Below are positions 4,507-39,384 of a stretch of DNA of 64,000 nucleotides, in pieces. This DNA is from Kiritimatiellia bacterium. GTDB taxonomy: Bacteria > Verrucomicrobiota > Kiritimatiellia > RFP12 > UBA1067. Numbering within the stretch: position 1 is the first letter of the stretch; each line of letters starts with the position of its first letter. The DNA lies in contig JAGBZX010000018.1 of NCBI GenBank assembly GCA_017628025.1, forward strand, positions 4,786 through 68,785. Reading direction: 5' to 3'. The position numbers and the translations under genes are program-made. The notes below the pieces were generated by a model. That model did not search any database, was not told the origin of the DNA, and saw only the letters and a list, made by a program, of their open reading frames with translations.

Positions 4507-7500
4507 TTATCTGATCATTACTTGGAAACCTTCCGGCCAGACAATTTTTCCACCGTCGCCAGTTACGATTGTATTCGCCGCGATACGCTCCTCGTAATTC
4601 CCGCCTGTCCAACCTTTACCACCTTTATGGTCACGCGAAAGAAGTTTTATTTTACTCGAATTCAAATAAACCTTTGCGTTTGATGCCTTTAAAACCATAT
4701 CCTTCAACACAAGGGTAGATCCAATCTTCCATGTATCATTCTTGACCGTTATAGAATTACCACCAGAAATAATTACACGAACCTTTCTGTATTCCGAAAG
4801 ATTATCATTGGACATAGGAATATAAACCGTTCCTGAAGTATTATACGCTTGGTCGATAAATAGCTCCCCAACGCCTGAACCATCCTCTCGGTAGTATGTT
4901 CCGCCTGTATATCCACCTGCACTAATGGATACCCCATAATCACTCCATCCAATGCGCTCAGTTTGGTAAATCGCAATTCTTCCAGCAGAAGAATGCTGCG
5001 CCCAACCATCACCAGCCGTCGATCGAACTGAAATTGAACCAGCACCTTTTACACTAGCTCCAGAAACCCATACACTTCCGCCAGTACCAGGAGCATAACT
5101 AACAACCGACGAGCCAGCTTTTATTTCGCAATCCAACACGACATGCCCATCTGCAATTAGCCTAAATGCGCCGCCGCCGTGTGCACCAGCCGCATAACCA
5201 TGAGATCCCAAAGAAAATGGATGCAATATTGATCCGTATGGTTTATTACCTGCTTGAGACCCCAATCCTGCAAAAGCAGAGCCGCCCGTACCGCCTGCAG
5301 TCCTCCCTGGACCAATCGCGCCACTACCAAAGCCTTTATTCTCAATATTTACCGAAGAACCAGCCTCTAAAGTCGCATCACCTGCAACTTCAAAGTTGAG
5401 CTTATACACCTCCTTATTACCAGAAGTAGTCGCACCGTGCGTCAATGTTACCCCTCTTTCAAGAAGAAAATCTCCATCGATTTCGTTAGGGCTCGCCCAA
5501 TAACCGAAAGAGCACGTCGCTCCAGAGAGCATATAAAGCCCTCCTGCGATATCATGCTTATAATTCGACGTGAAATTAACCGTTCCACCGTCGCCGCCAA
5601 TGACGATTTCTCCTGTTGCTAAGTTACTAGACGTATTGACGGTCCAAGTTACGCCTGATGCAGGACATATACAAATCTGTGTTTCTGCTTGCGGAACTAT
5701 CCCGTTCGCCCAACAAGACTCAGTCGAAAACCCTGTCCCGCCGCCAATCCATTCTGCGGCAGCCGCAGGAGAAAAGTCGCAATTAAGGCTATTCCCGTTG
5801 CCATCGGTAGAAAGCGCCCCGAGTTTGATATCCGCGCCCAAAGACGCGTCGCAATTCGATAGAACTACGCCTCTCAGATGCTGCGGACCTGTAACTTTCA
5901 AATTCCATGGACCAGTCGAGCCAACTGAAAGCACATGGTCATACGCGCCGCTCTCTCCGACAAGACCGAAAAGCGAAAGATGATATACCTCTACAGTCTG
6001 TCCCGCGGCAAACGCGAGCGATAGGGGATTGGTCACGCGAGAAAGGAAGTGCCGCGCCTTAAAGCCGTTTTCAAACTCAATCGACCCGCCAGATTTAGCC
6101 ACAGTTATCCGCGAATACGAATTATTCCCCAAATCCACTTTCTGATAGCCGTCACCTTCAAACTTCAGAACATCATCCACCCCGAATGTCATCGTACCCA
6201 AAGACGAAAAGGCGTTTGTGACGATAAGATCTCCTCCTGAAAGCGTAATTGCCGCGCCCGCTTCATTCGTGAGCGAGTTCACGACTGTGTTGTTCGCTAT
6301 CAATGGATAACGATCGCGACCGCTAGGAATTAAAATACAATTCTCTTCATTCGGAACCATCATAGGATTCCAATTGCCAGCGTCAGTCCACGATGTACTT
6401 ATGTTACCAGTCCACTCAACAAGATCGCCAGGCTTTGAAGATGCCATAATTGACCAACCGATATTGTTGCCCAAGTCAACTCCGTCTTCATCAAGCGGCA
6501 TCATACCGGACGAAGCGTCAGAATCTTTTACATCACAATAAGAGATTGATACCGTCGCATCTGGCTCAATGGAAAGTTGCCACTGCGAATCGTCCGTCTT
6601 TGAGAGAAGATTAATTGCATTGCCCTCTTCACCCGCGAGTGATAAACTTCCTTTAGAAAGAATGGTTGTTTTGTTTCCTGATCCTTCCCCGAAGCGGATC
6701 GTCTTTCCGGGGGTTGTACAAGACAACGAAAAGAATTTGTTCGCGCCTTCAATTACAGCATCTTCGGGCCCCTCGAAAGTAACCTTCGACCCCTCCTCGC
6801 AACTAAACTTCCCCTTCAGAGTGCAAAGGCGCTTCGTTATCCTAAGATTTGCACCACTTGGAAGTTTTAAATGTGCACCATTAGTAACGATAACTGTCCC
6901 GAACACCTCGTTGCGGTCAATAACAAGTGAATCCATAGAAGTAGCACAATAATAGCTAGTTGGAGTAATATTACCGCTATCAATTAAAAGCGTACCCTCC
7001 CCATACACGTCACCGGCATGTTCAAGATATATCGTTCCACATCCAGCTTTCGTCGTGGCGCAACCATACGCCTTTACGGAGCCTTTGAATGCGTCGAACG
7101 AGTCTGCCACGGATTGGCGTATTGAAATACGACCGCCACCAGCGCCCGAAGAGCTCGTAACGCGTCCAGCCGATGCATCTATTGTTCCTTTACCAGAGAT
7201 AGAGCCGACTTTTAAGTATATACTCCCGCCAGTGCCGTTGTAGTAGTTCAAGCCCGCCTTACTAAGGACAGAAATCGTCCCATCAACTACTAGTTCACCA
7301 GCCACCTCAAGATACACTGCTCCGCCAGCCTTATATGACTCATTATTCCCACTATTTCCAGCGCCTCCCAAATCCTTCGGTTCACGTATAGACCCCCAAC
7401 AGCGCCTACTGGTAAGTTGATTACTATGACCTCCTACACCACCATAAGCAGGTTGATTAACGAGGTTACCTGTACCTATAGAACCGAAAGTTGCTCCATC

Positions 7501-9243
7501 AAAAGGCCCCTTCAAATCACCATTGACGCTGGCTCCAGAAGCTATATTCATCGTAGAGCACTTAAGACAAAGTTTGTACTGATTAGACTTGTTATTGTTA
7601 ATGCGGTGCGTCAATGTAGCGCCGCGAGCAACAGTTACCTTGCCAGCGACCTTGTTTAACTCAACTCCGTTACAGAAATTAACCGTTGGGTAAGCTTTTC
7701 CTTCGCCGCCGCCCACAATAAATTCGCCAATGTCCAAAGGTGAATTCACCGTAACGGTATAAGCCGAAGCCTTATTAGGCAGTATTACAATGGAATTTGC
7801 GCCAGGAACAACACCAAGACTCCAATTGGCGGCATCTTCGAAATTACCCGAGCCGCCCGTCCATATATTAAGTTCATCCGATGCAATGCTTGAGCAGGTA
7901 ATGGAGCACTGCGATTCAACAACAGGAATATCAAAAGATATTGAGGAATTATCCATTTCATTCATTACCGCGCCTGCTGGCAAGTTACCCCAAGTGAAGT
8001 ATGCATGATCTCCCTCTGATACATTGCGCGCGTATACCGTCACATTAGACGTTGCAAAGACATTAGGAAGTTGAATTGAAGAACCCCAATTCTCGCCATC
8101 AAAAGAAAATTCCGTATTTTCATCGCTAGATGACACAGCAAGATTAAACCTCGCCGCTTTACAAGTAATTTCAAGATCTTCTGGCGGGTTTTTAAATTGA
8201 ACTTGAGAATTGTTCTTATCAAGGAATTCAGCATCTGAGGGAAGCCCAGACCAGATAAAATGCGCTCCTTCAAAAACTGAATTTTGAGCTTTGATGGTAA
8301 CGGTAGAGGCATTTTCTACATCGTCTGCAACAATACTCGAGTGCCATGTTTCGCCATCGAAAGAAAGTTCCGTCTCGCTGTCAGCCGCCGAACAAGCAAC
8401 CGTTGTCTTAACACCAATTCCGAGAAAACGCTCTCTGTCAATTGCAAGGTTTGTGGCAATTTCCTCTGCGGTCAACTCCCTATTATAAAACCTTATGGCA
8501 TAAAGTCGCATTTTAGCACTAGTATTATTTGCCGCGCAACCAAGCCACACCGTATTCTTTGTGGGATCTGTCGATCCACCTTTGTTAGTGAGAATTACAT
8601 CTCCATCATCAATACTAAGGCTGGCACCTGTAGTAGAATTGATTCTTATGTTAAGTAAAATATCCTTATTTATGTATGATGATGTACTAATGCTAGGACA
8701 TGCCGACGCTTTGCCTGGGAAACTGGTACCATTTCTATACTGAAGGCCTCCTATTGCCCCATTCTTACAAATTGTATTATCTTCTCTTTGGTCGAGAATA
8801 AGTTGGCGGTAATTATTGCCGCCACCGACGGAAAGATAACCGCTAAACTTTAAATATGCTTCTGGCCGCACAAAAATCTGCACTGTCATCGCCTTATCTT
8901 TTAAAGCAGTTAAGATCGGGGCACTTGCTATCGAATAATACGCTTTAGCTCCTGCACCAGCAAAAGAAAGATATGTATCTTTTATAGATATGGTACCCGA
9001 CTTCGATGCTCCTGATCCAGAAACGATATCTTTCCATGTAGTGGCGGAAGCATTATGGATATCTCCTTGTTCGGCACTCCAGCCTGCATTCGCAATTGCA
9101 TCAAACTGAGCGATAAGTCCGTCTTGCACATAGTTCTTAACCGTCTTATCACCGTATGCAAGCACATTATTAGCCGTAAAGATAAGTATAATCCCTATAG
9201 CAAACCTACTCACAGAACAAAAGGATTTTATGATATTATTCAT
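4507..9243 (-). CDS. Giant secreted surface protein (1578 aa): signal peptide, LamG/concanavalin-like domain, two Ig-like repeats, and duplicated beta-helix-type modules
   Basis: The signal peptide ends ..NNVLA/YGD. The LamG-like region spans aa 35-275 (YVQDGLIAQFDAIANAG..RLYAIRFYNRELTAEEI). Two ~85-aa tandem repeats cover aa 277-450. Modules begin W-x-G-G-x-G-x-F...NW..G-x-VP at aa 460, 944 and 1165. The C-terminus is ..EGFQVMIR. An SD (AAAGGAAGAG) precedes the ATG. Confidence 0.9.
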   Translation of the reverse strand: MNNIIKSFCSVSRFAIGIILIFTANNVLAYGDKTVKNYVQDGLIAQFDAIANAGWSAEQGDIHNASATTWKDIVSGSGASKSGTISIKDTYLSFAGAGAKAYYSIASAPILTALKDKAMTVQIFVRPEAYLKFSGYLSVGGGNNYRQLILDQREDNTICKNGAIGGLQYRNGTSFPGKASACPSISTSSYINKDILLNIRINSTTGASLSIDDGDVILTNKGGSTDPTKNTVWLGCAANNTSAKMRLYAIRFYNRELTAEEIATNLAIDRERFLGIGVKTTVACSAADSETELSFDGETWHSSIVADDVENASTVTIKAQNSVFEGAHFIWSGLPSDAEFLDKNNSQVQFKNPPEDLEITCKAARFNLAVSSSDENTEFSFDGENWGSSIQLPNVFATSNVTVYARNVSEGDHAYFTWGNLPAGAVMNEMDNSSISFDIPVVESQCSITCSSIASDELNIWTGGSGNFEDAANWSLGVVPGANSIVILPNKASAYTVTVNSPLDIGEFIVGGGEGKAYPTVNFCNGVELNKVAGKVTVARGATLTHRINNNKSNQYKLCLKCSTMNIASGASVNGDLKGPFDGATFGSIGTGNLVNQPAYGGVGGHSNQLTSRRCWGSIREPKDLGGAGNSGNNESYKAGGAVYLEVAGELVVDGTISVLSKAGLNYYNGTGGSIYLKVGSISGKGTIDASAGRVTSSSGAGGGRISIRQSVADSFDAFKGSVKAYGCATTKAGCGTIYLEHAGDVYGEGTLLIDSGNITPTSYYCATSMDSLVIDRNEVFGTVIVTNGAHLKLPSGANLRITKRLCTLKGKFSCEEGSKVTFEGPEDAVIEGANKFFSLSCTTPGKTIRFGEGSGNKTTILSKGSLSLAGEEGNAINLLSKTDDSQWQLSIEPDATVSISYCDVKDSDASSGMMPLDEDGVDLGNNIGWSIMASSKPGDLVEWTGNISTSWTDAGNWNPMMVPNEENCILIPSGRDRYPLIANNTVVNSLTNEAGAAITLSGGDLIVTNAFSSLGTMTFGVDDVLKFEGDGYQKVDLGNNSYSRITVAKSGGSIEFENGFKARHFLSRVTNPLSLAFAAGQTVEVYHLSLFGLVGESGAYDHVLSVGSTGPWNLKVTGPQHLRGVVLSNCDASLGADIKLGALSTDGNGNSLNCDFSPAAAAEWIGGGTGFSTESCWANGIVPQAETQICICPASGVTWTVNTSSNLATGEIVIGGDGGTVNFTSNYKHDIAGGLYMLSGATCSFGYWASPNEIDGDFLLERGVTLTHGATTSGNKEVYKLNFEVAGDATLEAGSSVNIENKGFGSGAIGPGRTAGGTGGSAFAGLGSQAGNKPYGSILHPFSLGSHGYAAGAHGGGAFRLIADGHVVLDCEIKAGSSVVSYAPGTGGSVWVSGASVKGAGSISVRSTAGDGWAQHSSAGRIAIYQTERIGWSDYGVSISAGGYTGGTYYREDGSGVGELFIDQAYNTSGTVYIPMSNDNLSEYRKVRVIISGGNSITVKNDTWKIGSTLVLKDMVLKASNAKVYLNSSKIKLLSRDHKGGKGWTGGNYEERIAANTIVTGDGGKIVWPEGFQVMIR

Positions 9244-9276: not shown

Positions 9277-9306
9277 ATTATAGCATTTACCCCCCCCCCC
9301 TGTCAA
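9277..9306 (-). promoter_or_regulatory. Sigma70-type promoter with a G11 homopolymer in the spacer (candidate phase-variable promoter of the giant protein gene)
   Basis: The minus strand reads TTGACA (9301-9306), G x11 (9290-9300), TAAATGC, then TATAAT (9277-9282). The spacer is 18 nt and TGC-TATAAT forms an extended -10. The promoter lies 34 nt upstream of the ATG. Confidence 0.7.
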
Positions 9307-23699: not shown

Positions 23700-25859
23700 T
23701 TATCTGACTATAACCGAAAGACCGTAAACTTTATCTAAGCAAAACTTTATATTATCCAATGCGGAATGAGCAAAATTTCCTGGATTCTTGCCATCTGTTG
23801 AATCATTATCACTAATTGAACTTATTAGCAATACGAATCGCAACTTGTAAACACCAGGCTTTTTGACTCTGCAATATGACTCATATTGCTTATCCCAGAC
23901 TCGATTCTTGTCATATTGATGCACCATTTGGCCAAGAGAAATTTCTTTACCATCTTCATCAACAAGAAGAACATTAATCACCCACTTTGAATTAACAACT
24001 CGAGTATTATGGTATCCGGCAGAACCGATACAAGAAAACTTATATTCTCCTTTATCTGTTACTCTAACATCTGTCTCTATAACAGCATCTGTTCTCCCAT
24101 TAATATAATTATTTCCAGCCATAATAGCAGAAAGACCTTTTGCGTTATAAGTCTTTATCCCTGTATTAGTACACCCTTCCTTTTGGGCGGCCAAAATTCC
24201 TGTAAAACATATTGTTTTTGTCCCTTCTTTAACAATCGTCCAAGATCCAGCTGTCAATCGGTCAAAATTCCGAATTATATCTTTGCTGTGCGAAGAATTG
24301 TTATTTATTTCGAAATCACCATTTAAAATTAAATTATCCTTTTTATGAGCTGAAAAATACGCGTTAATCGTCATTGGTGCAGCAACGGCGGTAATTAATT
24401 TACTTTGCTCTATCAAACGCTGAGTTCCGTCTCCCCAACCGCCCCAGCCGACAAAGTTATCCATAGATGCAATTGCTACATTAATAGTATCTCCTTCTCT
24501 ATACCAGCCGGATTTATCTTCAACAAGGCTGCCTCTTTCGCATGAAGTTACTGTTGAAACATAATATTCTTTTATGAATTTCCATTTAAGAACAACGCCT
24601 TTATTTTCGCCTATCGCATACTGAACGGTGTCTGCAGTGCTTTGGTTATCTCTGTAATCATCTGCATATTCATCTATCAACACTGTTTCATCTTTATTCC
24701 AAAGTTCACAGCCTACACACACAGCTCGAACGCCTTCACTAACATCAGAAAACCTAGGAAAAGTATACTCGCCGCTACTTGGAAGTATTGGATATAACCC
24801 ATAAGTAATATCAGGCGAACCAAACTTTTCTGTAGTACTATCTATTACAATTCCTTGGAAATCATCATCGTTAAGCGCATATCTCAACACAACGATGCCA
24901 CTACCGCCGGAGCCGCCTCTGTTTGCCCCGCGTCCGCCGCCGCCACCGCCACCTGTAGAAGCTTCACCAGAATAAGCAGCTGAGTTGTATGTATCATTAT
25001 AACCACCGCCCTTGCCACCTCCTCCTTTTCCTCCATTTCCGCGATATGCGTTATAATAATTATAAGAACCGCCGCCACCGCCGCCAGCATACCAAGTTTC
25101 CACACCAACAATATACGAGGATCGTCCGTTACCACCATGACCTATACCGCTAGAACTTCCAACAGAAGTCCCGCCGCCGCCTGCGCCGCCGCCGCCTGCG
25201 CCAGGTGAATTACCTGATGTAGAAAAAGTTCTATTTCCACCATTGTTTCCTTGATCAGGTATTCCTGCTCCTCCTTGAGACGCATCATATGCCAGGCTAC
25301 CACTCGTACCAGCTCCACCTCCGCCGCTACCTCCATCAGAACCATTTGCGGCTTCTTTAGAAATTGCAGATCCACCAGCTCCGCCGCCGTAAGCAATTAT
25401 AGCATCTTGTCCGACCGCTGTAATTGAGGAATCTGCTCCATTTTTTGCCAGAGTTGAGCCTCCACCGGTAGCACCTGAACCACCTGCACCAACAACTATA
25501 TTTAAATCGGTATTTGCAGAAATACCGGTAAGAATACCTGTAAGCATGCCACCAGCGCCGCCACCGCCACCACCACCAGATGAAGCGCCGCCGCCGCCAC
25601 CACCGCCGGCAACGACTAGATAATTAATTATGCCTTCTTTAATGCCGGCGGGAACTTGCCAAGTGTGAGGATTTGTCTCATCGGCAACAGCTGTAAACGC
25701 TACAACATACTCAAGCGTTCCGTTTGGCAATAACAACGCCTGTGTGTAGCCGTTATCAGTAGTAACTTTCTGAGCAAAATATTTTGCCGCTATAGGTTCT
25801 TCAGCAACTACGGTAGAAGCGATAATAACCGCTGGAAGGAAAGAACGCAGATATTTCAT
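23700..25859 (-). CDS. Glycine-rich secreted surface protein, paralog B (719 aa)
   Basis: The signal peptide is MKYLRSFLPAVIIASTVVA/EEP with an AAAGGAG SD 8 nt upstream. The track start at 25886 is a GTG extension. Architecture: conserved N-terminal beta segment (..HTWQVPAG..YLVVAGGGGGGG), ~260-aa Gly-run domain ending GSGIVVLRY, an InlB-B-repeat-like segment (WYREGDTINV..FVGWGG..INAYF), a divergent jelly-roll-like C-terminal domain starting DNLILNGDFE, and the tail GLSVIVR. Confidence 0.85.
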   Translation of the reverse strand: MKYLRSFLPAVIIASTVVAEEPIAAKYFAQKVTTDNGYTQALLLPNGTLEYVVAFTAVADETNPHTWQVPAGIKEGIINYLVVAGGGGGGGASSGGGGGGGAGGMLTGILTGISANTDLNIVVGAGGSGATGGGSTLAKNGADSSITAVGQDAIIAYGGGAGGSAISKEAANGSDGGSGGGGAGTSGSLAYDASQGGAGIPDQGNNGGNRTFSTSGNSPGAGGGGAGGGGTSVGSSSGIGHGGNGRSSYIVGVETWYAGGGGGGSYNYYNAYRGNGGKGGGGKGGGYNDTYNSAAYSGEASTGGGGGGGRGANRGGSGGSGIVVLRYALNDDDFQGIVIDSTTEKFGSPDITYGLYPILPSSGEYTFPRFSDVSEGVRAVCVGCELWNKDETVLIDEYADDYRDNQSTADTVQYAIGENKGVVLKWKFIKEYYVSTVTSCERGSLVEDKSGWYREGDTINVAIASMDNFVGWGGWGDGTQRLIEQSKLITAVAAPMTINAYFSAHKKDNLILNGDFEINNNSSHSKDIIRNFDRLTAGSWTIVKEGTKTICFTGILAAQKEGCTNTGIKTYNAKGLSAIMAGNNYINGRTDAVIETDVRVTDKGEYKFSCIGSAGYHNTRVVNSKWVINVLLVDEDGKEISLGQMVHQYDKNRVWDKQYESYCRVKKPGVYKLRFVLLISSISDNDSTDGKNPGNFAHSALDNIKFCLDKVYGLSVIVR

Positions 25860-25889
25860 AGCTAATACTCCTTTTATAAATTTCACATC

Positions 25890-25918
25890 ATTTTATCATT
25901 TACCCCCCCCCCTGTCAA
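25890..25918 (-). promoter_or_regulatory. Sigma70-type promoter with a G10 homopolymer spacer (paralog B)
   Basis: The minus strand reads TTGACA (25913-25918), G x10 (25903-25912), TAAATGA, then TAAAAT (25890-25895). The spacer is 17 nt and TGA-TAAAAT forms an extended -10. Confidence 0.7.
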
Positions 25919-25944
25919 GAACTTCAAAACCGAAACAAAAATAG

Positions 25945-25968
25945 AAAAGTAGGTCTGACCTACTTTTT
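25945..25968. terminator. Bidirectional hairpin flanked by an A-run and a T-run (second terminator after paralog C)
   Basis: AAAAGTAGGTCTGACCTACTTTTT is palindromic around the centre. It is conserved at 28806-28832. Confidence 0.5.
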
Positions 25969-26009
25969 GATTTTTGAAAACTCATTTTAGAAAAAACTCA
26001 TAACGAAAC

Positions 26010-26042
26010 AAAACTCCCGCCCAAAATCAGGACGAGAGTTTT
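26010..26042 (-). terminator. Rho-independent terminator of paralog C
   Basis: The minus-strand RNA is CUCUCGUCC-UGAUUUU-GGGCGGGAG, a 9-bp stem including 2 G-U pairs. It is followed by UUUUGUUUCGUU and starts 25 nt after the stop codon. Confidence 0.7.
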
Positions 26043-26066
26043 ATTTAGCTTAGTCTCTTACCTTAC

Positions 26067-28637
26067 TTATCTGACCATGAGCGCGAAGCCACAACGCTTG
26101 TCAAGGCAAAGCGAGATGTTATCAAGCCCCATTGAAAGAGTATTATAAGTACCAATTCGAGACTCTTTTGGTATGGTAAATTTCAATTTATAAGCGCCTC
26201 CCTTTGGGATATTAAACTGCTGCACTTGTGATTTCCAGTTACTTTGACCAATATCTTTAACATCAAACTCTCCAATAGAAATTATCCTATCAGAATTATT
26301 TTTATCAACAAGCTCTACTTTTACTTTCCACTCATTATTTGCTATATTACTAGTATTCGCGCCTCTTACTAACATACAAGAGAATGTATAAAGCCCCCCA
26401 CAATGAGGATTTACATCACATGAAACACACCCTTCATCTCCATCATATAAGGTAGTCAGCTGCAGAGAAAGCCCTGTAAGTCCATACGATCTAATATTGG
26501 TACCATATGATAAATTATTGTGTGAAGAGATTATTCCACACACAAAATAACTACTTCCTGCATTCTGCTCTATATTCCAAGATCCGGCATTTAATAGTCT
26601 GAGGCTTCCTATAACATCCAGCTGACTAATATATTCTACATGTTGTTCAAAATCACCATTTAAAACAAGATTATCTTTAATATTTTGAGTAAAATATGCC
26701 GTTGCAACAATAGGTTTATTTTTAACTACTACTTCAGCCTGCGCCTCGCTTGGGCATCCGCCAGAAAAGAACCCACCCCAACCTTTAAAGCCTACGGTAG
26801 AAGCAACTTCAAGAGTTATCTCATCTCCAGTCTTATACCAACCAGACTTATTCTCTTTTAATGCACCATTACCTTCAACAACAGTCGAAACATAATACTC
26901 TTCACGCCATTTCCATGTTAAAAGAACCGGTTCTTCAAATTGAACAGAGGCTGAGACATTCCCGTTTTGTGCCTCGCTTACCGGGAAAACTTCAGATGTA
27001 ACACCTGTTGAAAATGAAGTAAGCGTATAACCTACACAATGTTGACGGATTGTTTCTGTTACCTCTGTAAATTCCGGAGCATAAAGTGTATAAGTGCTTC
27101 CAACGCTTGAATACGAAGCAAAATGATCTTCCAAAGAACCATTTATTGCAAATCCGTCATAACTAACCGTAATCCCACTAGGAATGAAAAATGCCTTGAT
27201 AGTTGTAGGTTTCGATTCAACCGTAAATGCATACTCATTTGAGGTATTCTCTAAATCCACACCATCTTTTTGCCATTTGCCCAAACTATAGTTAAATCCA
27301 GGAGTTGCTACGATAGTCATCAATGTACCTGAACTATAATAGCCAGTTGACACATTAAACGTGCCTTCTCTATCTTTTTCGATAGTAACTAAATAGCGAA
27401 GCTCCCACTGCCATTCAAGTGTAGATCCAGCACAAGAAGAATCAAGTATTGCCTTTAAATTAGTCTCACCTTCCGCAAGAGTCCCAGAAGAGCGAATAAG
27501 TTCTCCTGATGAACCATAAAGTTTCCACCCTGTGCAATACGCCCTTACACCATCTTCTACTTGTACATACTCTTGACAAGAATACTCATTTGCAGGAATT
27601 TCTTCATAAGCGCCATAAGCAGGAACAGGTGTGCCATAAGAGCCGCCAAAAGAAGAAATAATAATACCAGACGAAACATCTACTTTTGCGTAACGCAATA
27701 TAACAATACCACTACCACCAGCTCCGCCATCCTTTGATGCATGACCGCCCCCGCCTCCACCACCGAGACCATTCGTTCCGGGGTTGCCAACAGTAGCGTA
27801 GCCTATTTTCTTATCAGAGGTTCCTCCACCTCCATCGCCACCTCCACCAAGTCCTCCAGAACCAGAAGAATTATAAGTACTCGAATAACCAGCACCACCG
27901 CCGCCGCCACCATAATAAATTTCAGTACCAGTAATAGAAGATTTCCGGCCGTTCCCACCAGAGAACCCTGTAGCAGGCGCTCCTGCACCGCCACCGCCAT
28001 AACCTCTTGAATTGCCACCCATTGCGACCCTACCATATCCATTATTACCCTGTCCTTCAAATCCATTTCCTCCAGGAGCTGGATAACTCCTTGATGCACC
28101 TGCAGCCGTTCCCGCACCACCGCCGCCACTGCCGCCATCAGCACCACCAAACAAATCTTTCAAGTTCGCATCATTATAAATACCGCCGCCACCACCGCCT
28201 CCATAACTAGTCACCTTTCTTAATCCAAAAGCAATGTATGAATCCCCTCCATTTGAACCACGAATAGAACCGAGACCATGTTTCACTCCTCCTGCACCAC
28301 CGTCTCCTACTTTAATCTCAATTTCTTGATTGGGACTAACCGAGGAAGTCTCTTCTATCATACCGCCGCCACCACCACCGCCACCATGGTAGTATCCACC
28401 ACCGCCACCTCCGGCAACAACAAGATATTCCATAGAATACACACCAGACGGCACTGTAAATGAATGAGGCGTCGATGTATCAGTAAAAGCAACGACATAC
28501 TCTGTCTTCCCCTCTGCCGTTACAACTTCATTCGACCAGCCGCCTTCGATTTCAAACGGACCAGAAACAGATACATCTTGTGCATTAATAAAAGAAAATA
28601 CCGATATTCCAAGCGAAAAAACTATGCTCTTTTTCAT
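26067..28637 (-). CDS. Glycine-rich secreted surface protein, paralog C (856 aa)
   Basis: The signal peptide is MKKSIVFSLGISVFSFINA/QDV with a GGAGG SD. It has the same architecture as B and D, plus additional InlB-B-repeat-like modules (..GKWQKDGVDL..IKAFF, ..FKGWGG..ATAYF). The Gly-run domain spans aa 57-316 and ends GSGIVILRY. The C-terminal domain starts DNLVLNGDFE and the tail is GFALMVR. Confidence 0.9.
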   Translation of the reverse strand: MKKSIVFSLGISVFSFINAQDVSVSGPFEIEGGWSNEVVTAEGKTEYVVAFTDTSTPHSFTVPSGVYSMEYLVVAGGGGGGYYHGGGGGGGGMIEETSSVSPNQEIEIKVGDGGAGGVKHGLGSIRGSNGGDSYIAFGLRKVTSYGGGGGGGIYNDANLKDLFGGADGGSGGGGAGTAAGASRSYPAPGGNGFEGQGNNGYGRVAMGGNSRGYGGGGAGAPATGFSGGNGRKSSITGTEIYYGGGGGGAGYSSTYNSSGSGGLGGGGDGGGGTSDKKIGYATVGNPGTNGLGGGGGGGHASKDGGAGGSGIVILRYAKVDVSSGIIISSFGGSYGTPVPAYGAYEEIPANEYSCQEYVQVEDGVRAYCTGWKLYGSSGELIRSSGTLAEGETNLKAILDSSCAGSTLEWQWELRYLVTIEKDREGTFNVSTGYYSSGTLMTIVATPGFNYSLGKWQKDGVDLENTSNEYAFTVESKPTTIKAFFIPSGITVSYDGFAINGSLEDHFASYSSVGSTYTLYAPEFTEVTETIRQHCVGYTLTSFSTGVTSEVFPVSEAQNGNVSASVQFEEPVLLTWKWREEYYVSTVVEGNGALKENKSGWYKTGDEITLEVASTVGFKGWGGFFSGGCPSEAQAEVVVKNKPIVATAYFTQNIKDNLVLNGDFEQHVEYISQLDVIGSLRLLNAGSWNIEQNAGSSYFVCGIISSHNNLSYGTNIRSYGLTGLSLQLTTLYDGDEGCVSCDVNPHCGGLYTFSCMLVRGANTSNIANNEWKVKVELVDKNNSDRIISIGEFDVKDIGQSNWKSQVQQFNIPKGGAYKLKFTIPKESRIGTYNTLSMGLDNISLCLDKRCGFALMVR

Positions 28638-28667
28638 AAAACCCTCCTACAACAATTATTCTTAGGT

Positions 28668-28696
28668 ATAATATCATTTACCCCCCCCCCTGTCAA
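28668..28696 (-). promoter_or_regulatory. Sigma70-type promoter with a G10 homopolymer spacer (paralog C)
   Basis: The minus strand reads TTGACA (28691-28696), G x10 (28681-28690), TAAATGA, then TATTAT (28668-28673). The spacer is 17 nt. Confidence 0.7.
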
Positions 28697-28805
28697 TGCC
28701 AAAGTTTTGTACCATTATTTCAATTTGCAGGTCTATCACCAAAAGGGCCTACGTGGGCGAATATACGGCTCGAATCAGCTCTTACGGCGATGCCGTTGAC
28801 AAAAT

Positions 28806-28832
28806 AAAAAAGTAGGTCTGACCTACTTTTTT
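28806..28832. terminator. Bidirectional hairpin flanked by an A-run and a T-run (second terminator after paralog D)
   Basis: AAAAAAGTAGGTCTGACCTACTTTTTT is a near-identical copy of 25945-25968. Confidence 0.5.
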
Positions 28833-28871
28833 ATTTTTGAAAACTCATTTTAGAAAAACTCCTAACGAAAC

Positions 28872-28904
28872 AAAACTCCCGCCCAAATTTAGGACGAGAG
28901 TTTT
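28872..28904 (-). terminator. Rho-independent terminator of paralog D
   Basis: It has the same 9-bp stem as 26010-42 (CUCUCGUCC/GGGCGGGAG). The only differences between the two copies fall in the loop (CUAAAUUU vs CUGAUUUU). A U-tract follows. Confidence 0.7.
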
Positions 28905-28928
28905 ATTTAGCTTAGTCTCTTACCTTAC

Positions 28929-31085
28929 TTATCTAACCATGAGCGCGAAGCCAAAACGCTTTTTAAGTTTAAGCATGAGGTTGTCTATCGCTGAATGAGC
29001 ATTAACATTATCGTTAACATCATTTTTGTATACCTTAGATCTTTCTATTTTAAATATCAATTTATAAATTCCGCCTTTTCGAATTTGAATTTCAAAAGGA
29101 TAATTTGCCTTAGAAGCATTATCTTTTTGAAGGATATTACAAACATTTACCTCTTCACCACTTCCATTTTTTTGTAAATAAACACTTATCTCCCATGTTG
29201 TTGCATTTACATCACCTGGATCTGCATCAAATGATAAATCATAAAGACCTGAACACGGTATATTGACATAACAACTTATTGATGCAGTTCCTGAGTAGTT
29301 AGTGTTTTTTCCTTTTGTCCCTATAATTCCTGAATGATTACCACTTATGACCTTTGAGCCAGAGTTTGCTACACCTGTCGATCTAGCACTTAATAATCCT
29401 GTTGGATAGGATGTATAAGAATTTTGTGTAGATTCCCATATTCCTCCTATTAAACGAGAAAATGTCGTATCTATCGTCGTAGAATCGCTAGTATTTCCAC
29501 TCATTTCAAAATCGCCATTAAGTACCAAATTATCTTTATTATGCGCTGTAAAGTAAGCGGTAATTGTCATTGGTGCAGCAACAACTTCAATTGTTTTACT
29601 TGGCTCAATTGAACGATCTGCGTTAATTCCCCAGCCGCCCCAGCCGATAAAGTTGTCCATAGAGGTAATTGCTACTTGAATAGTATCGCCTGCTCTATAC
29701 CAACCGGATTTGTCTGCAACAAGGCTGCCTCTCTCGCAAGAAGCTACAGTTGAAACATAATATTCTTTTTCAAATTTCCATTTAAGGATAACGCCTTTTT
29801 CAGAATCGTTCCTTGTGAAAGTAATCGTTTTTGATAAATCAGTTTCTTCGTATGGAGGATTTTCCGAATCAAAAGTATCAGACCTGATTAGATACTCTTC
29901 ACCTTCTTCATTCCTACCATAAAGTTCCCAACCAATACAAGTAGCCCTTGCACCTTCGCTAAGTACCGTATATTTCGGACAAGTAAATGCGCTATTACTC
30001 GGTAGTTCCTTGTAAATATCATAAGCAGGACTTGGTGTACCAAACTTCTCAGTAGTAGAATCAACTGCAATACCTTGGAAATTATCGTTATTAAGCGCAT
30101 ATCTCAACACAACAATGCCGCTATCGCCTGAGCCGCCCGATCGGTAACCTCTCGCGCCACCGCCACCACCGCCTGTAGAAGCAGTTCCCGACCCTCCATT
30201 ACCTACTGGTTCATTGCTTATATTACCGCCAGCGCCACCTCCGCCAGCGCCACCAAGACCATTATTATCAATCGAGTTACCATAGGTACCGCCGCCACCA
30301 CCACCAGCATACCGAACCTGTGCACCAGTGATATAAGAATATCTACCATCCCCACCATGCCCTCGATTATTGGTATTAGCAGTTGTAATCGTAATTCCTG
30401 CCATCCCTGCTCCGCCACCTCCTGCTCCTGGTCTATTTTGGGTAGTATCCGAGGTTCTGTTACCACCTGCAAAACCTTGTCCTTCCACGCAAGTTCCACC
30501 AGTTGTTGGTAATTTAGCTGAACTGCCACTTGTTCCAGCAGCACCGCCACCACTGCCACCAGCTGAACCATTAGCAACATCTTGAGAATATGCAGAGCCT
30601 CCAGCACCACCACCAATGGCAATTATATCAGTCGCCCCTTTAATAAAGGAATCTTCACCATTATTTGCTACTTTATTTGCACTAGAACCGCCGCCACCAC
30701 CAGCGCCAACAACAATAGTTAAATCAGTACTTTCAGAAATACTATTAAGCGTGCCTGTAAGCATACCGCCACCGCCGCCGCCACCGCCGCCACCACCAGA
30801 GGATGCATTATTACCAGTACCGCCACCGCCACCACCGGCGACGACTAGATAATCAATTTTGCTGTCTTTAACATTGGCGGGAACTTGCCAAGTGTGAGGA
30901 TTTGATTCATCATTAACAGTTGTAAATGCAACGACATATTCAAGTGTTCCATCGGGCAACAACAATGTCTGCGTGTACCCGCTATCAGTCGTTTCTTTTT
31001 GAGCAAAATATTGTGCCGCCGTAGGCTCTGCAAGAACAGAAGAAGCAACAAAAAATACCGAGACAAACGAAAGCAACAATTTCAT
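28929..31085 (-). CDS. Glycine-rich secreted surface protein, paralog D (718 aa)
   Basis: I prefer the start at 31085 (MKLLLSFVSVFFVASSVLA/EPT) with a GGAGG SD 8 nt upstream. The track ORF runs on to 31412 through non-coding-looking sequence. D is close to B in the N-terminal, Gly-run and B-repeat parts. Its C-terminal domain (from DNLVLNGDFE) is strongly divergent, and the tail is GFALMVR. Confidence 0.85.
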   Translation of the reverse strand: MKLLLSFVSVFFVASSVLAEPTAAQYFAQKETTDSGYTQTLLLPDGTLEYVVAFTTVNDESNPHTWQVPANVKDSKIDYLVVAGGGGGGTGNNASSGGGGGGGGGGGMLTGTLNSISESTDLTIVVGAGGGGGSSANKVANNGEDSFIKGATDIIAIGGGAGGSAYSQDVANGSAGGSGGGAAGTSGSSAKLPTTGGTCVEGQGFAGGNRTSDTTQNRPGAGGGGAGMAGITITTANTNNRGHGGDGRYSYITGAQVRYAGGGGGGTYGNSIDNNGLGGAGGGGAGGNISNEPVGNGGSGTASTGGGGGGARGYRSGGSGDSGIVVLRYALNNDNFQGIAVDSTTEKFGTPSPAYDIYKELPSNSAFTCPKYTVLSEGARATCIGWELYGRNEEGEEYLIRSDTFDSENPPYEETDLSKTITFTRNDSEKGVILKWKFEKEYYVSTVASCERGSLVADKSGWYRAGDTIQVAITSMDNFIGWGGWGINADRSIEPSKTIEVVAAPMTITAYFTAHNKDNLVLNGDFEMSGNTSDSTTIDTTFSRLIGGIWESTQNSYTSYPTGLLSARSTGVANSGSKVISGNHSGIIGTKGKNTNYSGTASISCYVNIPCSGLYDLSFDADPGDVNATTWEISVYLQKNGSGEEVNVCNILQKDNASKANYPFEIQIRKGGIYKLIFKIERSKVYKNDVNDNVNAHSAIDNLMLKLKKRFGFALMVR

Positions 31086-31110
31086 AACAAATCCTCCCTT
31101 GTTTTTAAGT

Positions 31111-31141
31111 ATTTTATCATTTACCCCCCCCCTGGTGTCAA
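31111..31141 (-). promoter_or_regulatory. Sigma70-type promoter with a CCA+G9 spacer (paralog D), 19-nt spacing
   Basis: The minus strand reads TTGACA (31136-31141), CCA, G x9 (31124-31132), TAAATGA, then TAAAAT (31111-31116). The spacer is 19 nt. Confidence 0.6.
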
Positions 31142-31254
31142 CAAAAAAAAGACAAAAAAGCCTAATCAACACAATTATTGGTAGCGGCGGGATTCGCCTG
31201 CCGCGTGATGCACCTATCGCGAAGCGATCAGGTCCCCCGACGAGCAAAGCGAGG

Positions 31255-31291
31255 AGCTTTCGCATAGCGAGTCTCAAGAGTCCGAGCCGCA
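31255..31291. repeat. 37-bp perfect direct repeat, copy 1
   Basis: AGCTTTCGCATAGCGAGTCTCAAGAGTCCGAGCCGCA is identical to 31773-31809. Confidence 0.9.
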
Positions 31292-31680
31292 GAACTGACT
31301 TTTCCGATTGCGCATAGGCTTCGCTACATTGATATTGATAATTGGTACTGGCAACACTGGAGTAATCGGTTACTCGATTATCCATTGTACATTGCGCCTG
31401 CGGCGCGACCACTAAAACCGTTGGGCGGCTTTATAGCGAACTAACACGAAAAAGACCAGAGTTTGGGAACACTTTCCCTTGTACTTCAGACCTTCTAATC
31501 TCGTATCTCTATTTTAGTGAACATTCGTGTCGCCGAACCGCGGCGTTTCGTGTCTGTGGCGTGTGACGAAACCCGTAAGGGTGAATCAGAGATGGACGCA
31601 CCACCAAGGGGAAGCCTTATCGAAGCGAACTGCGAAGAATATCTACCGACCGAAGGTCGCTGCCGAAGGCAGTCGCTAGA

Positions 31681-31767
31681 GTGGTGCCTCAAGGCCCCGC
31701 GCGAGGAGCTTTCTAGAGAGAGTGTTACGCGCGAGGATTTTGATTCGTGGTGCCTCAAGGCCCCGCG
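31681..31767. repeat. Pair of 21-bp direct repeats (31681-31701 and 31747-31767)
   Basis: GTGGTGCCTCAAGGCCCCGCG occurs twice, 66 bp apart. Each copy is followed by a GAGGAGCTTTC / GAAAAGCTTTC variant that also precedes the 37-bp repeat. Confidence 0.85.
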
Positions 31768-31772
31768 AGAAA

Positions 31773-31809
31773 AGCTTTCGCATAGCGAGTCTCAAGAGTC
31801 CGAGCCGCA
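31773..31809. repeat. 37-bp perfect direct repeat, copy 2
   Basis: It is identical to 31255-31291 and lies 518 bp away in the same orientation. Confidence 0.9.
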
Positions 31810-31842: not shown

Positions 31843-32745
31843 TTAAGGTCTTGGATGGAACCTGCGATGCATCTCGCCAAATTTGCGCTCGTCAATATGA
31901 GTATATATCTGAGTTGTGCCAATATCTGCATGACCAAGCATCTCTTGTATCGCTCTTATATCAGCGCCATGTTGCAACATATGCGACGCAAATGAATGCC
32001 TCAAAACGTGTGGCGAAATTCTATTAGCCGAGATTCCTGCAATAGCAGCTCTTTCTCTAAGCAACTTAAAAATACCCTGCCGCGTAAATGGTCGACCTAA
32101 ACGAGTTACAAAAAGGATACTCTCAAACTCCGGTAACTTTGGAAACGTAGGTCTAGACTTATCTAAATAATTACAAAGCGCATTTCCAGCAGCATTGCCT
32201 AACGGTATTAATCTCTCTTTTGAACCCTTACCCATTACACGCAAAAGCTCTCCATCGGCTACTATATCATCTAGTCTTATTGCACAAAGCTCTGACACTC
32301 TAAGCCCACAGCCATACAAAAACTCTATTATCGCCCTATCCCTTAGAGATCTAGGGTCTTCTGCCGTAATTAATTCTATAAGATTTTGCGTTTCATCCTC
32401 TGAAAGAACTCGTGGCAATACACGAGCTCTCCTTGATGACTCAATAAGCTCAGAAGGTGCTGTTTTCAAAACGCCTTGAGAGACTAGAAAACTAAAAAAA
32501 CCTCTTAATGCTGCTACTCTTCTCGTGCGTGTCGCAGAAGACTTACCTTCATCTCGCTCTACTTCAAGAAATTGAGTTATATCAGAACGAACAACTTCTG
32601 AAGATTCTGTCTTTGCGCGCTTTGAAAGAAAATCTCTAAAAAACGACAAATCACTTGAATACGCCAACGACGTATTCGAAGACAAGCCTTTTTCCAAAAG
32701 CAACGAGGCAACAAAATCTGCAATATCGTCTTTTAATAAACCCAT
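31843..32745 (-). CDS. xerD: Tyrosine site-specific recombinase, XerD/XerC type
   Basis: The catalytic region is HVLRHSFASHMLQHGADIRAIQEMLGHADIGTTQIYTHI, with GLRVSELCAIRLDDI and GKGSKERLIPLG. The 300-aa length is typical of Xer and lacks an integron-integrase insertion. Confidence 0.75.
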   Translation of the reverse strand: MGLLKDDIADFVASLLLEKGLSSNTSLAYSSDLSFFRDFLSKRAKTESSEVVRSDITQFLEVERDEGKSSATRTRRVAALRGFFSFLVSQGVLKTAPSELIESSRRARVLPRVLSEDETQNLIELITAEDPRSLRDRAIIEFLYGCGLRVSELCAIRLDDIVADGELLRVMGKGSKERLIPLGNAAGNALCNYLDKSRPTFPKLPEFESILFVTRLGRPFTRQGIFKLLRERAAIAGISANRISPHVLRHSFASHMLQHGADIRAIQEMLGHADIGTTQIYTHIDERKFGEMHRRFHPRP

Positions 32746-39354: not shown

Positions 39355-39384
39355 ATTATACATACTTTCAGGTAGGTATGTCAA
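39355..39384 (-). promoter_or_regulatory. Candidate promoter of the tetR-RND operon with an embedded palindromic operator
   Basis: The minus strand reads TTGACA (39379-39384), an 18-nt spacer, then TATAAT (39355-39360). The inverted repeat ACATAC-N10-GTATGT (39360-39381) spans the spacer. Only 11 nt without an SD lie between the -10 box and the ATG. Confidence 0.4.

Follow-up and report, generated by a model that had tools for sequence, protein, structure and literature searches.

Hypermutable poly-G promoter spacers precede four secreted-protein genes in a Kiritimatiellia bacterium: a candidate slipped-strand expression switch

A stretch of 64,000 nucleotides (nt) of DNA from a Kiritimatiellia bacterium (assembly GCA_017628025.1, contig JAGBZX010000018.1), the whole of which is called the window here, contains four genes for secreted proteins, A to D, each of which lies behind a promoter whose -35 and -10 elements are separated by a run of guanines (the poly-G tract). 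Genes B, C and D are tandem paralogues; gene A is unrelated to them in sequence. The genes, their promoters and two terminators are as follows, with protein lengths in amino acids (aa).

4507-9243, minus strand: gene A, 1578 aa; signal peptide, no Pfam domain above threshold, C-terminal tail GFQVMIR
9277-9306, minus strand: promoter A; TTGACA at 9306-9301, G11 at 9300-9290, TAAATGC, TATAAT at 9282-9277; spacer 18 nt
23700-25859, minus strand: gene B, 719 aa; signal peptide, Gly_rich_2 domain, C-terminal part resembling a carbohydrate-binding module (CBM), tail GLSVIVR
25890-25918, minus strand: promoter B; TTGACA at 25918-25913, G10 at 25912-25903, TAAATGA, TAAAAT at 25895-25890; spacer 17 nt, extended -10 TG
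25936-25976, minus strand: palindromic terminator downstream of gene C (hairpin 25945-25967)
26067-28637, minus strand: gene C, 856 aa; signal peptide, Gly_rich_2 domain and InlB B-repeat-like (Flg_new_2) domain, tail GFALMVR
28668-28696, minus strand: promoter C; TTGACA at 28696-28691, G10 at 28690-28681, TAAATGA, TATTAT at 28673-28668; spacer 17 nt
28801-28837, minus strand: palindromic terminator downstream of gene D
28929-31085, minus strand: gene D, 718 aa; signal peptide, Gly_rich_2 domain, tail GFALMVR
31111-31141, minus strand: promoter D; TTGACA at 31141-31136, CCA, G9 at 31132-31124, TAAATGA, TAAAAT at 31116-31111; spacer 19 nt

The four promoters share a module, TTGACA-(CCA)-G9-11-TAAATGN-TAnnAT, found at intergenic sites 56-63 nt upstream of genes whose start codons have good ribosome-binding sites (RBSs); the G tracts themselves are 44-57 nt upstream of starts marked by an RBS and a signal peptide. 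All four have an extended -10 element, with TG placed two bases ahead of the -10 hexamer. A preliminary description of this DNA had read promoters B, C and D with spacers of 17, 17 and 19 nt, and our re-reading of the sequence confirmed these promoters exactly. The same description had found G/C homopolymers of nine or more at the four promoters and nowhere else, and a scripted count with the threshold lowered to seven or more still returned the same four tracts from the whole window. The pattern TTGACA-N0-3-G9-N0-2-TAAATG matched the window four times against 0.00 expected in 100 shuffles, and G9TAAATG with up to two mismatches detected the same four sites against 0.02 expected. The sigma-70 reading of these elements is justified for this organism by the distribution of the best coding-strand matches to TTGACA/TATAAT (11/12 or better): six of the seven are intergenic, although intergenic DNA makes up 5.8% of the window. 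Among these intergenic matches are the promoters of a tRNA-Ser/tRNA-Gly operon, with an N18 spacer, and of tetR, TTGACA-N18-TATAAT at 39384; that of infA reads TTGAAT-N17-TAAAAT, with TG. The hexamer grammar that the preliminary description had taken from tetR and infA is thus backed by intergenic enrichment. Its statement that each paralogue has its own promoter and its own terminator holds for the three promoters and for the terminators of C and D, downstream of which a terminator module of about 160 nt is present in two copies (25965-26123 and 28827-28985); it fails for gene B, since the 48-nt gap that follows B has no terminator-like hairpin. An Rfam search of the window returned two tRNAs and nothing else.

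For comparison with the window, exact-protein look-ups supplied about 20 contigs that belong to the same species and come from independent assemblies; they are given L numbers here. All of the data are short-read metagenome assemblies and the tract lengths are those of the consensus. To judge by sample names, the related samples are ruminant gastrointestinal metagenomes, which we take to be those of the Xie et al. catalogue. The lengths were as follows.

Tract A: G9 in L072 and L073; G10 in L065 and L066; G11 in the window; GGGGTGGGGG in the divergent L071
Tract B: G9 in L055 and L002; G10 in the window and L054
Tract C: G9 in L004; G10 in the window and L003; G11 in L055; G12 in L057; at least 12 in L056, at the contig end; GGGCTGGGCGTG in L054
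Tract D: CCA plus G9 in the window, L055 and L069; GGTTTGGTGT in the divergent allele of L054, L056, L057 and L059

This is the comparison that the preliminary description had proposed, and its reading of the poly-G spacers as hypermutable is supported at the level of DNA: tract A varies from 9 to 11, tract B from 9 to 10 and tract C from 9 to 12 between near-identical flanks, while tract D is constant. The window and L055 can be aligned over 18,082 nt with two mismatches and two one-base gaps, and both gaps are tracts (C from 10 to 11, B from 10 to 9); L065, which shares its assembly with L055, aligns over 11,806 nt with one mismatch and one gap, in tract A (11 to 10). In sum, the window differs from that strain (ERZ27256945) across about 29.9 kb by three mismatches and three single-base indels, and all of the indels are in tracts A, B and C. 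L004 matches the window over 2,717 nt with no mismatch and a single gap, at tract C. The strains include expansions as well as contractions, the length changes at different promoters are independent of one another, and a G8 version of the same promoter stands before a further paralogue at another locus (L068). Independent assemblies of the same allele agree with one another (L072 with L073, L065 with L066, and the window, L055 and L069 at D), and this recurrence of identical lengths argues against random homopolymer or assembly error. Contigs from different assemblers also break within tracts (L001/L062, which starts in tract B; L056 in C; L067 in A), as is expected if the reads of one sample disagree on length and the assembly graph branches. 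As far as assembled sequences can reveal it, these comparisons show that the poly-G runs are hypermutable, the gain or loss of a single G being far more frequent than mutation of the flanking DNA.

Spacers in this species cluster at 16-18 nt within an observed range of 15-19 nt, and spacer length has been kept in several places where the repeat has not. Promoter A of L071 is TTGACA-GGGGTGGGGG-TAAATGC-TATAAT, with a non-repeat spacer of 17 nt, and the D-slot allele of L054, L056, L057 and L059 is TTGACA-GGTTTGGTGT-TAAATGA-TAAAAT, again a non-repeat spacer of 17 nt. In promoter C of L054 the 12-nt segment GGGCTGGGCGTG gives a spacer of 19 nt and equals in length the pure G12 of the close relative L057. 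A distant homologue of C, in a genome of 63% GC, has an ordinary TTGACT-N17-TATAAT promoter. Non-repeat spacers that preserve length, together with the ordinary promoter of the distant homologue, suggest that the G run is dispensable for promoter function and is an extra element that renders the spacing mutable. Coding DNA tells the complementary story: GGG makes up 5% of the glycine codons of B and D compared with 13.6% in other genes, and the longest G run in the glycine-rich coding sequence of B and D is 4 compared with a simulated mean of 6.9 (P<=0.0005). The rarity of such runs in coding sequence suggests that slippery runs have been purged where they are harmful and retained in promoters only.

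Coding G runs in the window strain are never longer than 4-6. The D orthologue in L069 (GCA_045646825.1) has a poly-glycine stretch coded by G7, G8 and G8 runs at L069:6451-6478, ggggggg t gggggggg tggc gggggggg; these runs either add a place for slippage within the gene or are an artefact of the assembly.

The products of the four genes suit a phase-variable surface repertoire, being secreted and, we infer, probably surface-exposed proteins encoded by three tandem paralogues and the unrelated gene A. Typical Sec signal peptides are found at the N-termini of B, C and D, and A has a signal peptide too. Sequence identity is 50% between B and D and about 32% between C and either of these; all three paralogues match Pfam PF21722, Gly_rich_2 (cut-off 24.3 bits), with scores of 80 for B, 77.3 for C and 87.9 for D (E values of 1e-21 to 1e-24), and A has no match to this family. 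An AlphaFold model of B has a mean predicted local distance difference test score (pLDDT) of 71.5, with residues 30-330 mostly above 90. The PDB structures closest to the model are glycine-rich phage tail-tip and fibre proteins (Bxb1 9d93_Qb; cyanophage Pam3 7ypx_A), and CBM beta-sandwiches also match it, probably through the C-terminal part. These phage-fibre-like and CBM-like matches point to B-D as secreted, probably glycan-binding surface proteins. A sequence search of the PDB with protein B gave insignificant matches throughout, no NCBIfam family covered A-D, nor did NCBIfam show a known C-terminal sorting domain in them, and an exact look-up of the sequence of protein D found no record. 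The named homologues of B are from Kiritimatiellia, and all of the named matches listed for the LigA protein of this organism, at 61-64% identity, belong to MAGs of Kiritimatiellia or Kiritimatiellae, which places the organism in that class. Five proteins from Kiritimatiellae (P0013, P0015, P0020, P0080 and P0108; 860-1249 aa) combine sigma-70 regions 2/4 of the extracytoplasmic function (ECF) type with Gly_rich_2; the annotation of one reads sigma-70 family sigma factor, some have a C-terminal hydrophobic tail similar to that of B-D, and they may be fused sigma/anti-sigma-like sensors.

The start of gene D requires comment. Its open frame runs upstream to 31412, giving an 827-aa open reading frame (ORF) in the window, and it is called as 778 aa in L002 (L002:7372-9708). 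We set the start at 31085 because the RBS and the signal peptide lie there; gene callers run D through its own promoter because the frame happens to stay open, and the tract then seems to be intragenic. This annotation trap is similar to that described for tp0126 and tprL of Treponema pallidum. An intragenic frameshift switch for D was rejected on the same grounds and because B and C have no such extension. Upstream of promoter D, in the 700-nt gap that separates it from an integrase gene of the XerC/D type, there are three copies of a G+C-rich direct repeat of about 33 nt, GTGGTGCCTCAAGGCCCCGCGCGAGGAGCTTTC (plus strand; 31229-31261, 31681-31713 and 31747-31779), which overlap a 109-aa ORF on the opposite strand.

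The cassettes themselves differ between strains. Cassette number varies (L054:11560-20903 compared with 23700-31400 in the window) and the D-slot protein is 75% identical between strains whose flanking DNA is 99.6% identical. At L054:17035-17069 there is an orphan copy of the promoter, TTGACA-GGGGGAGGG-TAAATGA-TATTAT. Behind it come about 740 nt of unrelated DNA and then a gene, served by an ordinary promoter, for a secreted protein of 717 aa; some of the DNA inserted in L054 is also found upstream of the L068 paralogue. These differences suggest recombination at the terminator-promoter modules.

The module is not confined to this species. A scan of 185,579 species genomes with TTGACA-N0-3-G8-N0-5-TAAATG yielded 49 loci in many phyla. 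A -10 hexamer, which is not part of the search pattern, follows in about two thirds of them (31 within 0-2 nt, a few at +3), about 13 of the 49 look like chance matches, and most of the ORFs downstream have N-termini that resemble signal peptides when judged by eye. Versions of the module with G9-13 precede signal-peptide proteins in other contigs of Kiritimatiellia and Verrucomicrobia. Several metagenome-assembled genomes (MAGs) gave multiple hits: a sheep-colon member of the Kiritimatiellae (five), another of the Kiritimatiellia (two), two Verrucomicrobia MAGs and a Hadza-gut MAG classified as 'Bacilli' (nine). At the loci from the Planctomycetes-Verrucomicrobia-Chlamydiae (PVC) group, whose GC contents are 43-61%, the promoter tract is the sole G run of eight or more. 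A second scan, of Joint Genome Institute (JGI) metagenomes, found eight further loci with G9 or G10, all in one data set; the strain-level pattern GGGGGGGTAAATGMTAWWATDHHDHRR had no matches in the JGI metagenomes.

A second feature accompanies the promoters. Four of the 43 genes in the window encode a C-terminal tail of about 4-5 hydrophobic residues and a terminal arginine, and these are exactly the four with poly-G promoters (GLSVIVR, GFALMVR twice and GFQVMIR; 4507-4530, 23700-23723, 26067-26090 and 28929-28952). When the window and 17 PVC loci were taken together, the tail was present on 11 of 17 promoter-adjacent ORFs compared with 4 of 101 others (Fisher P=1.4e-8), a count in which one of the four others is D itself, misplaced through its over-extended ORF. 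The tail, ending in arginine or lysine, is also found in L006, L029, L031, L075 and L077-L080 and in many Gly_rich_2 homologues from Kiritimatiellia. No sorting-signal model in NCBIfam matches it, so the tail could be a C-terminal sorting tag of a kind not yet described. One can go further and regard the promoters as local copies of a conserved, class-wide 'phasome' cassette, dedicated to this role in Kiritimatiellia and some Verrucomicrobia and attached by preference to sorting-tagged secreted proteins; in higher-GC relatives the cassette would be joined directly to apparently leaderless ORFs. The proteins handled by one secretion or anchoring pathway would then be expressed stochastically as a set. 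We advance this broader proposal tentatively and consider it somewhat unlikely in so general a form.

Two groups of these distant loci have features of their own. In higher-GC, Kiritimatiellia-like contigs (L017, L031, L009, L074, L075, L077-L079 and L081) the start codon lies 6 nt after the -10 element, as in TAAATGATATCAT-attgag-ATG, an arrangement that implies leaderless mRNAs for the secreted proteins of these contigs; their counterparts in the window have leaders of about 30 nt with an AGGAG RBS. The Hadza-gut MAG, CAKOLD01 (L005, L007, L014, L015, L023, L047, L049 and L052), has at least nine promoters of the form TTGACA-G12-14-(C/T)TAAATG-TATAAT, most of which have downstream of them a conserved leader, tataatggtaagtagtatagg...ctacttataaaattagacaaaatattctata, and genes for paralogous membrane-anchored proteins of 660-676 aa. 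This set looks like an independent poly-G-promoter multigene family.

We propose that the poly-G spacers of genes A-D represent the classical slipped-strand expression switch, seen here in a new group of bacteria, and we give this reading a probability of about 0.72. The tracts would change in length through slipped-strand mispairing, each slip altering the separation of the -35 and -10 elements by 1 bp, and transcription of the gene behind the tract would rise or fall as a result, by analogy with Neisseria porA and T. pallidum tp0126. Each promoter would switch independently of the others, and the outcome would be a population with a stochastic, heritable and reversible mix of surface-protein expression states. 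Several points weigh against this proposal. That transcription depends on tract length is something that we infer from comparative analysis, as we do the positions of the transcription start sites and reversibility within a clone. Tract D is invariant in the three assemblies in which that allele was found: it stays at CCA plus G9, with a 19-nt spacing that is predicted to be poor. Two other promoters in the window have 18-nt spacers, and the spacers in the genome scan, all phyla included, are not centred on 17 nt (16 nt, n=9; 17 nt, n=3; 19 nt, n=13); we had considered a centring on 17 nt across phyla as support for the switch and discarded it for this reason. Homopolymers concentrate errors of sequencing, polymerase chain reaction (PCR) and assembly, and part of the variation in length could be technical. 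Finally, the -35 element can matter less at extended -10 promoters, so the effect of a slip may be that of a modest rheostat and not of an ON/OFF switch.

This last point leads to the most serious alternative, which accepts that the tracts are hypermutable but holds that changes in their length are nearly neutral and have a small effect on expression. The extended -10 element would drive transcription largely without the -35, and the tract would be kept for some other reason, for instance as a rigid G:C spacer, as the site of a regulator or as a by-product of promoter-cassette duplication, giving variation without a switch. The TG motif at all four promoters, the constancy of D at 19 nt and the scatter of spacer lengths in other taxa are all in keeping with this, as is the evidence that the promoter-terminator module has been duplicated and reshuffled, namely the orphan promoter in L054 and the upstream block shared with L068. 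We nevertheless consider it improbable. A perfect TTGACA is present at every copy of the module and in distant relatives of 43-61% GC, which is unexpected if the -35 element is dispensable, and the interrupted derivatives retain a 17-nt spacing. Furthermore, selection disfavours G runs in the neighbouring coding DNA, and a tract would not be expected to persist in the promoters without selection in its favour.

A technical origin of the length differences, in which slippage in Illumina sequencing or PCR and the choices made by assemblers impose variation on what are stable promoter elements, is less probable still. Homopolymers of 9-12 bases are certainly prone to error, the data come from short-read metagenome assemblies throughout, and contig ends at tracts could stem from loss of coverage or quality, as the junk sequence that follows G12 in L056 may illustrate. 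On the other hand, the consensus lengths extend from 9 to 12, they are reproduced in independent assemblies and samples of one allele, and the tracts of divergent strains contain substitutions of a kind that such errors do not produce.

Site-specific recombination by the XerC/D-like integrase (31843-32745), with promoter inversion or cassette shuffling as the switch in place of the poly-G tract, is very improbable: a Phage_integrase-family gene of 300 aa does lie directly upstream of D and strains do differ in cassette number and content, but none of the promoters is flanked by inverted repeats (the palindromic terminators are the only such repeats) and cassettes and promoters have one orientation in every assembly, which together exclude an inverton, and the integrase, 100% conserved, matches a housekeeping XerC/D protein in size and domains.

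The slipped-strand switch that we favour has well-known parallels. In Mycoplasma hyorhinis the vlp genes form a tandem array of surface-protein paralogues, each with its own poly-A spacer promoter, and are expressed in ON/OFF combinations. This system is the closest architectural match to the B-D array, from which it differs in that the tract is poly-A, the products are lipoproteins and the host is a wall-less Mollicute. In Neisseria meningitidis the homopolymers in the promoter spacers of porA (poly-G) and opc (poly-C) act as graded switches with three or more levels of expression; unlike the members of the Kiritimatiellia array, these are single genes of a proteobacterial pathogen and have no tandem paralogues. 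The general mechanism of phase variation by simple sequence repeats (SSRs) has been reviewed (PMC11868660). In T. pallidum, according to passages of PMC7864442 that cite Giacani 2015 and 2007, poly-G tracts of about 8-11 lie between the sigma-70 -35 and -10 elements of tp0126, which encodes an OmpW homologue, and of tpr genes; the same passages state that tp0126 is transcribed best with a 17-nt spacing and that its tract varies in length within and between strains. The resemblance lies in a poly-G promoter spacer upstream of genes whose products are putative outer-membrane or surface proteins. The differences are that T. pallidum is a spirochaete pathogen whose proteins are unrelated to those described here, that its tracts were assayed with reporters and fragment-length analysis whereas our case is built from comparative sequence data, and that in the Kiritimatiellia module the extended -10 element lies in a constant TAAATGN context and the module is linked to a C-terminal tail.

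Among PVC bacteria, the 9G tract of Amuc_1413 in Akkermansia muciniphila was described in 2026 as gaining or losing one G, as varying among genomes and as affecting mucin binding (PMC13055324). That organism is also a PVC gut bacterium and its tract is also a G9, but it is intragenic and operates at a single locus as a frameshift, and hence translational, switch, whereas the Kiritimatiellia tracts are promoter spacers that lie upstream of RBS-bearing starts and outside the reading frame. The preliminary description had considered the mechanism to be undescribed in PVC bacteria; the Akkermansia work overturns this for poly-G phase variation in general, and the claim survives for the promoter-spacer form, which we did not find in the literature. 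Our searches found no paper that links Kiritimatiellia with phase variation, none on Gly_rich_2, and none on homopolymeric tracts in PVC phyla beyond the Akkermansia report. Thus, the mechanism is a classical one, and it is the phylum and the protein family that are new for promoter-spacer poly-G.

The Kiritimatiellia are common in gut communities, those of ruminants among them, and have hardly been cultured. If the switch operates as we propose, SSR contingency loci, which are a hallmark of host-adapted pathogens, would also be at work in a commensal PVC lineage, and the poly-G module would provide a simple signature by which the variable surface repertoire of that lineage could be recognised in metagenomes. 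It would also explain the assembly breaks and the mis-called long ORFs at these loci. The tail that these proteins share points, in addition, to an uncharacterised sorting pathway.

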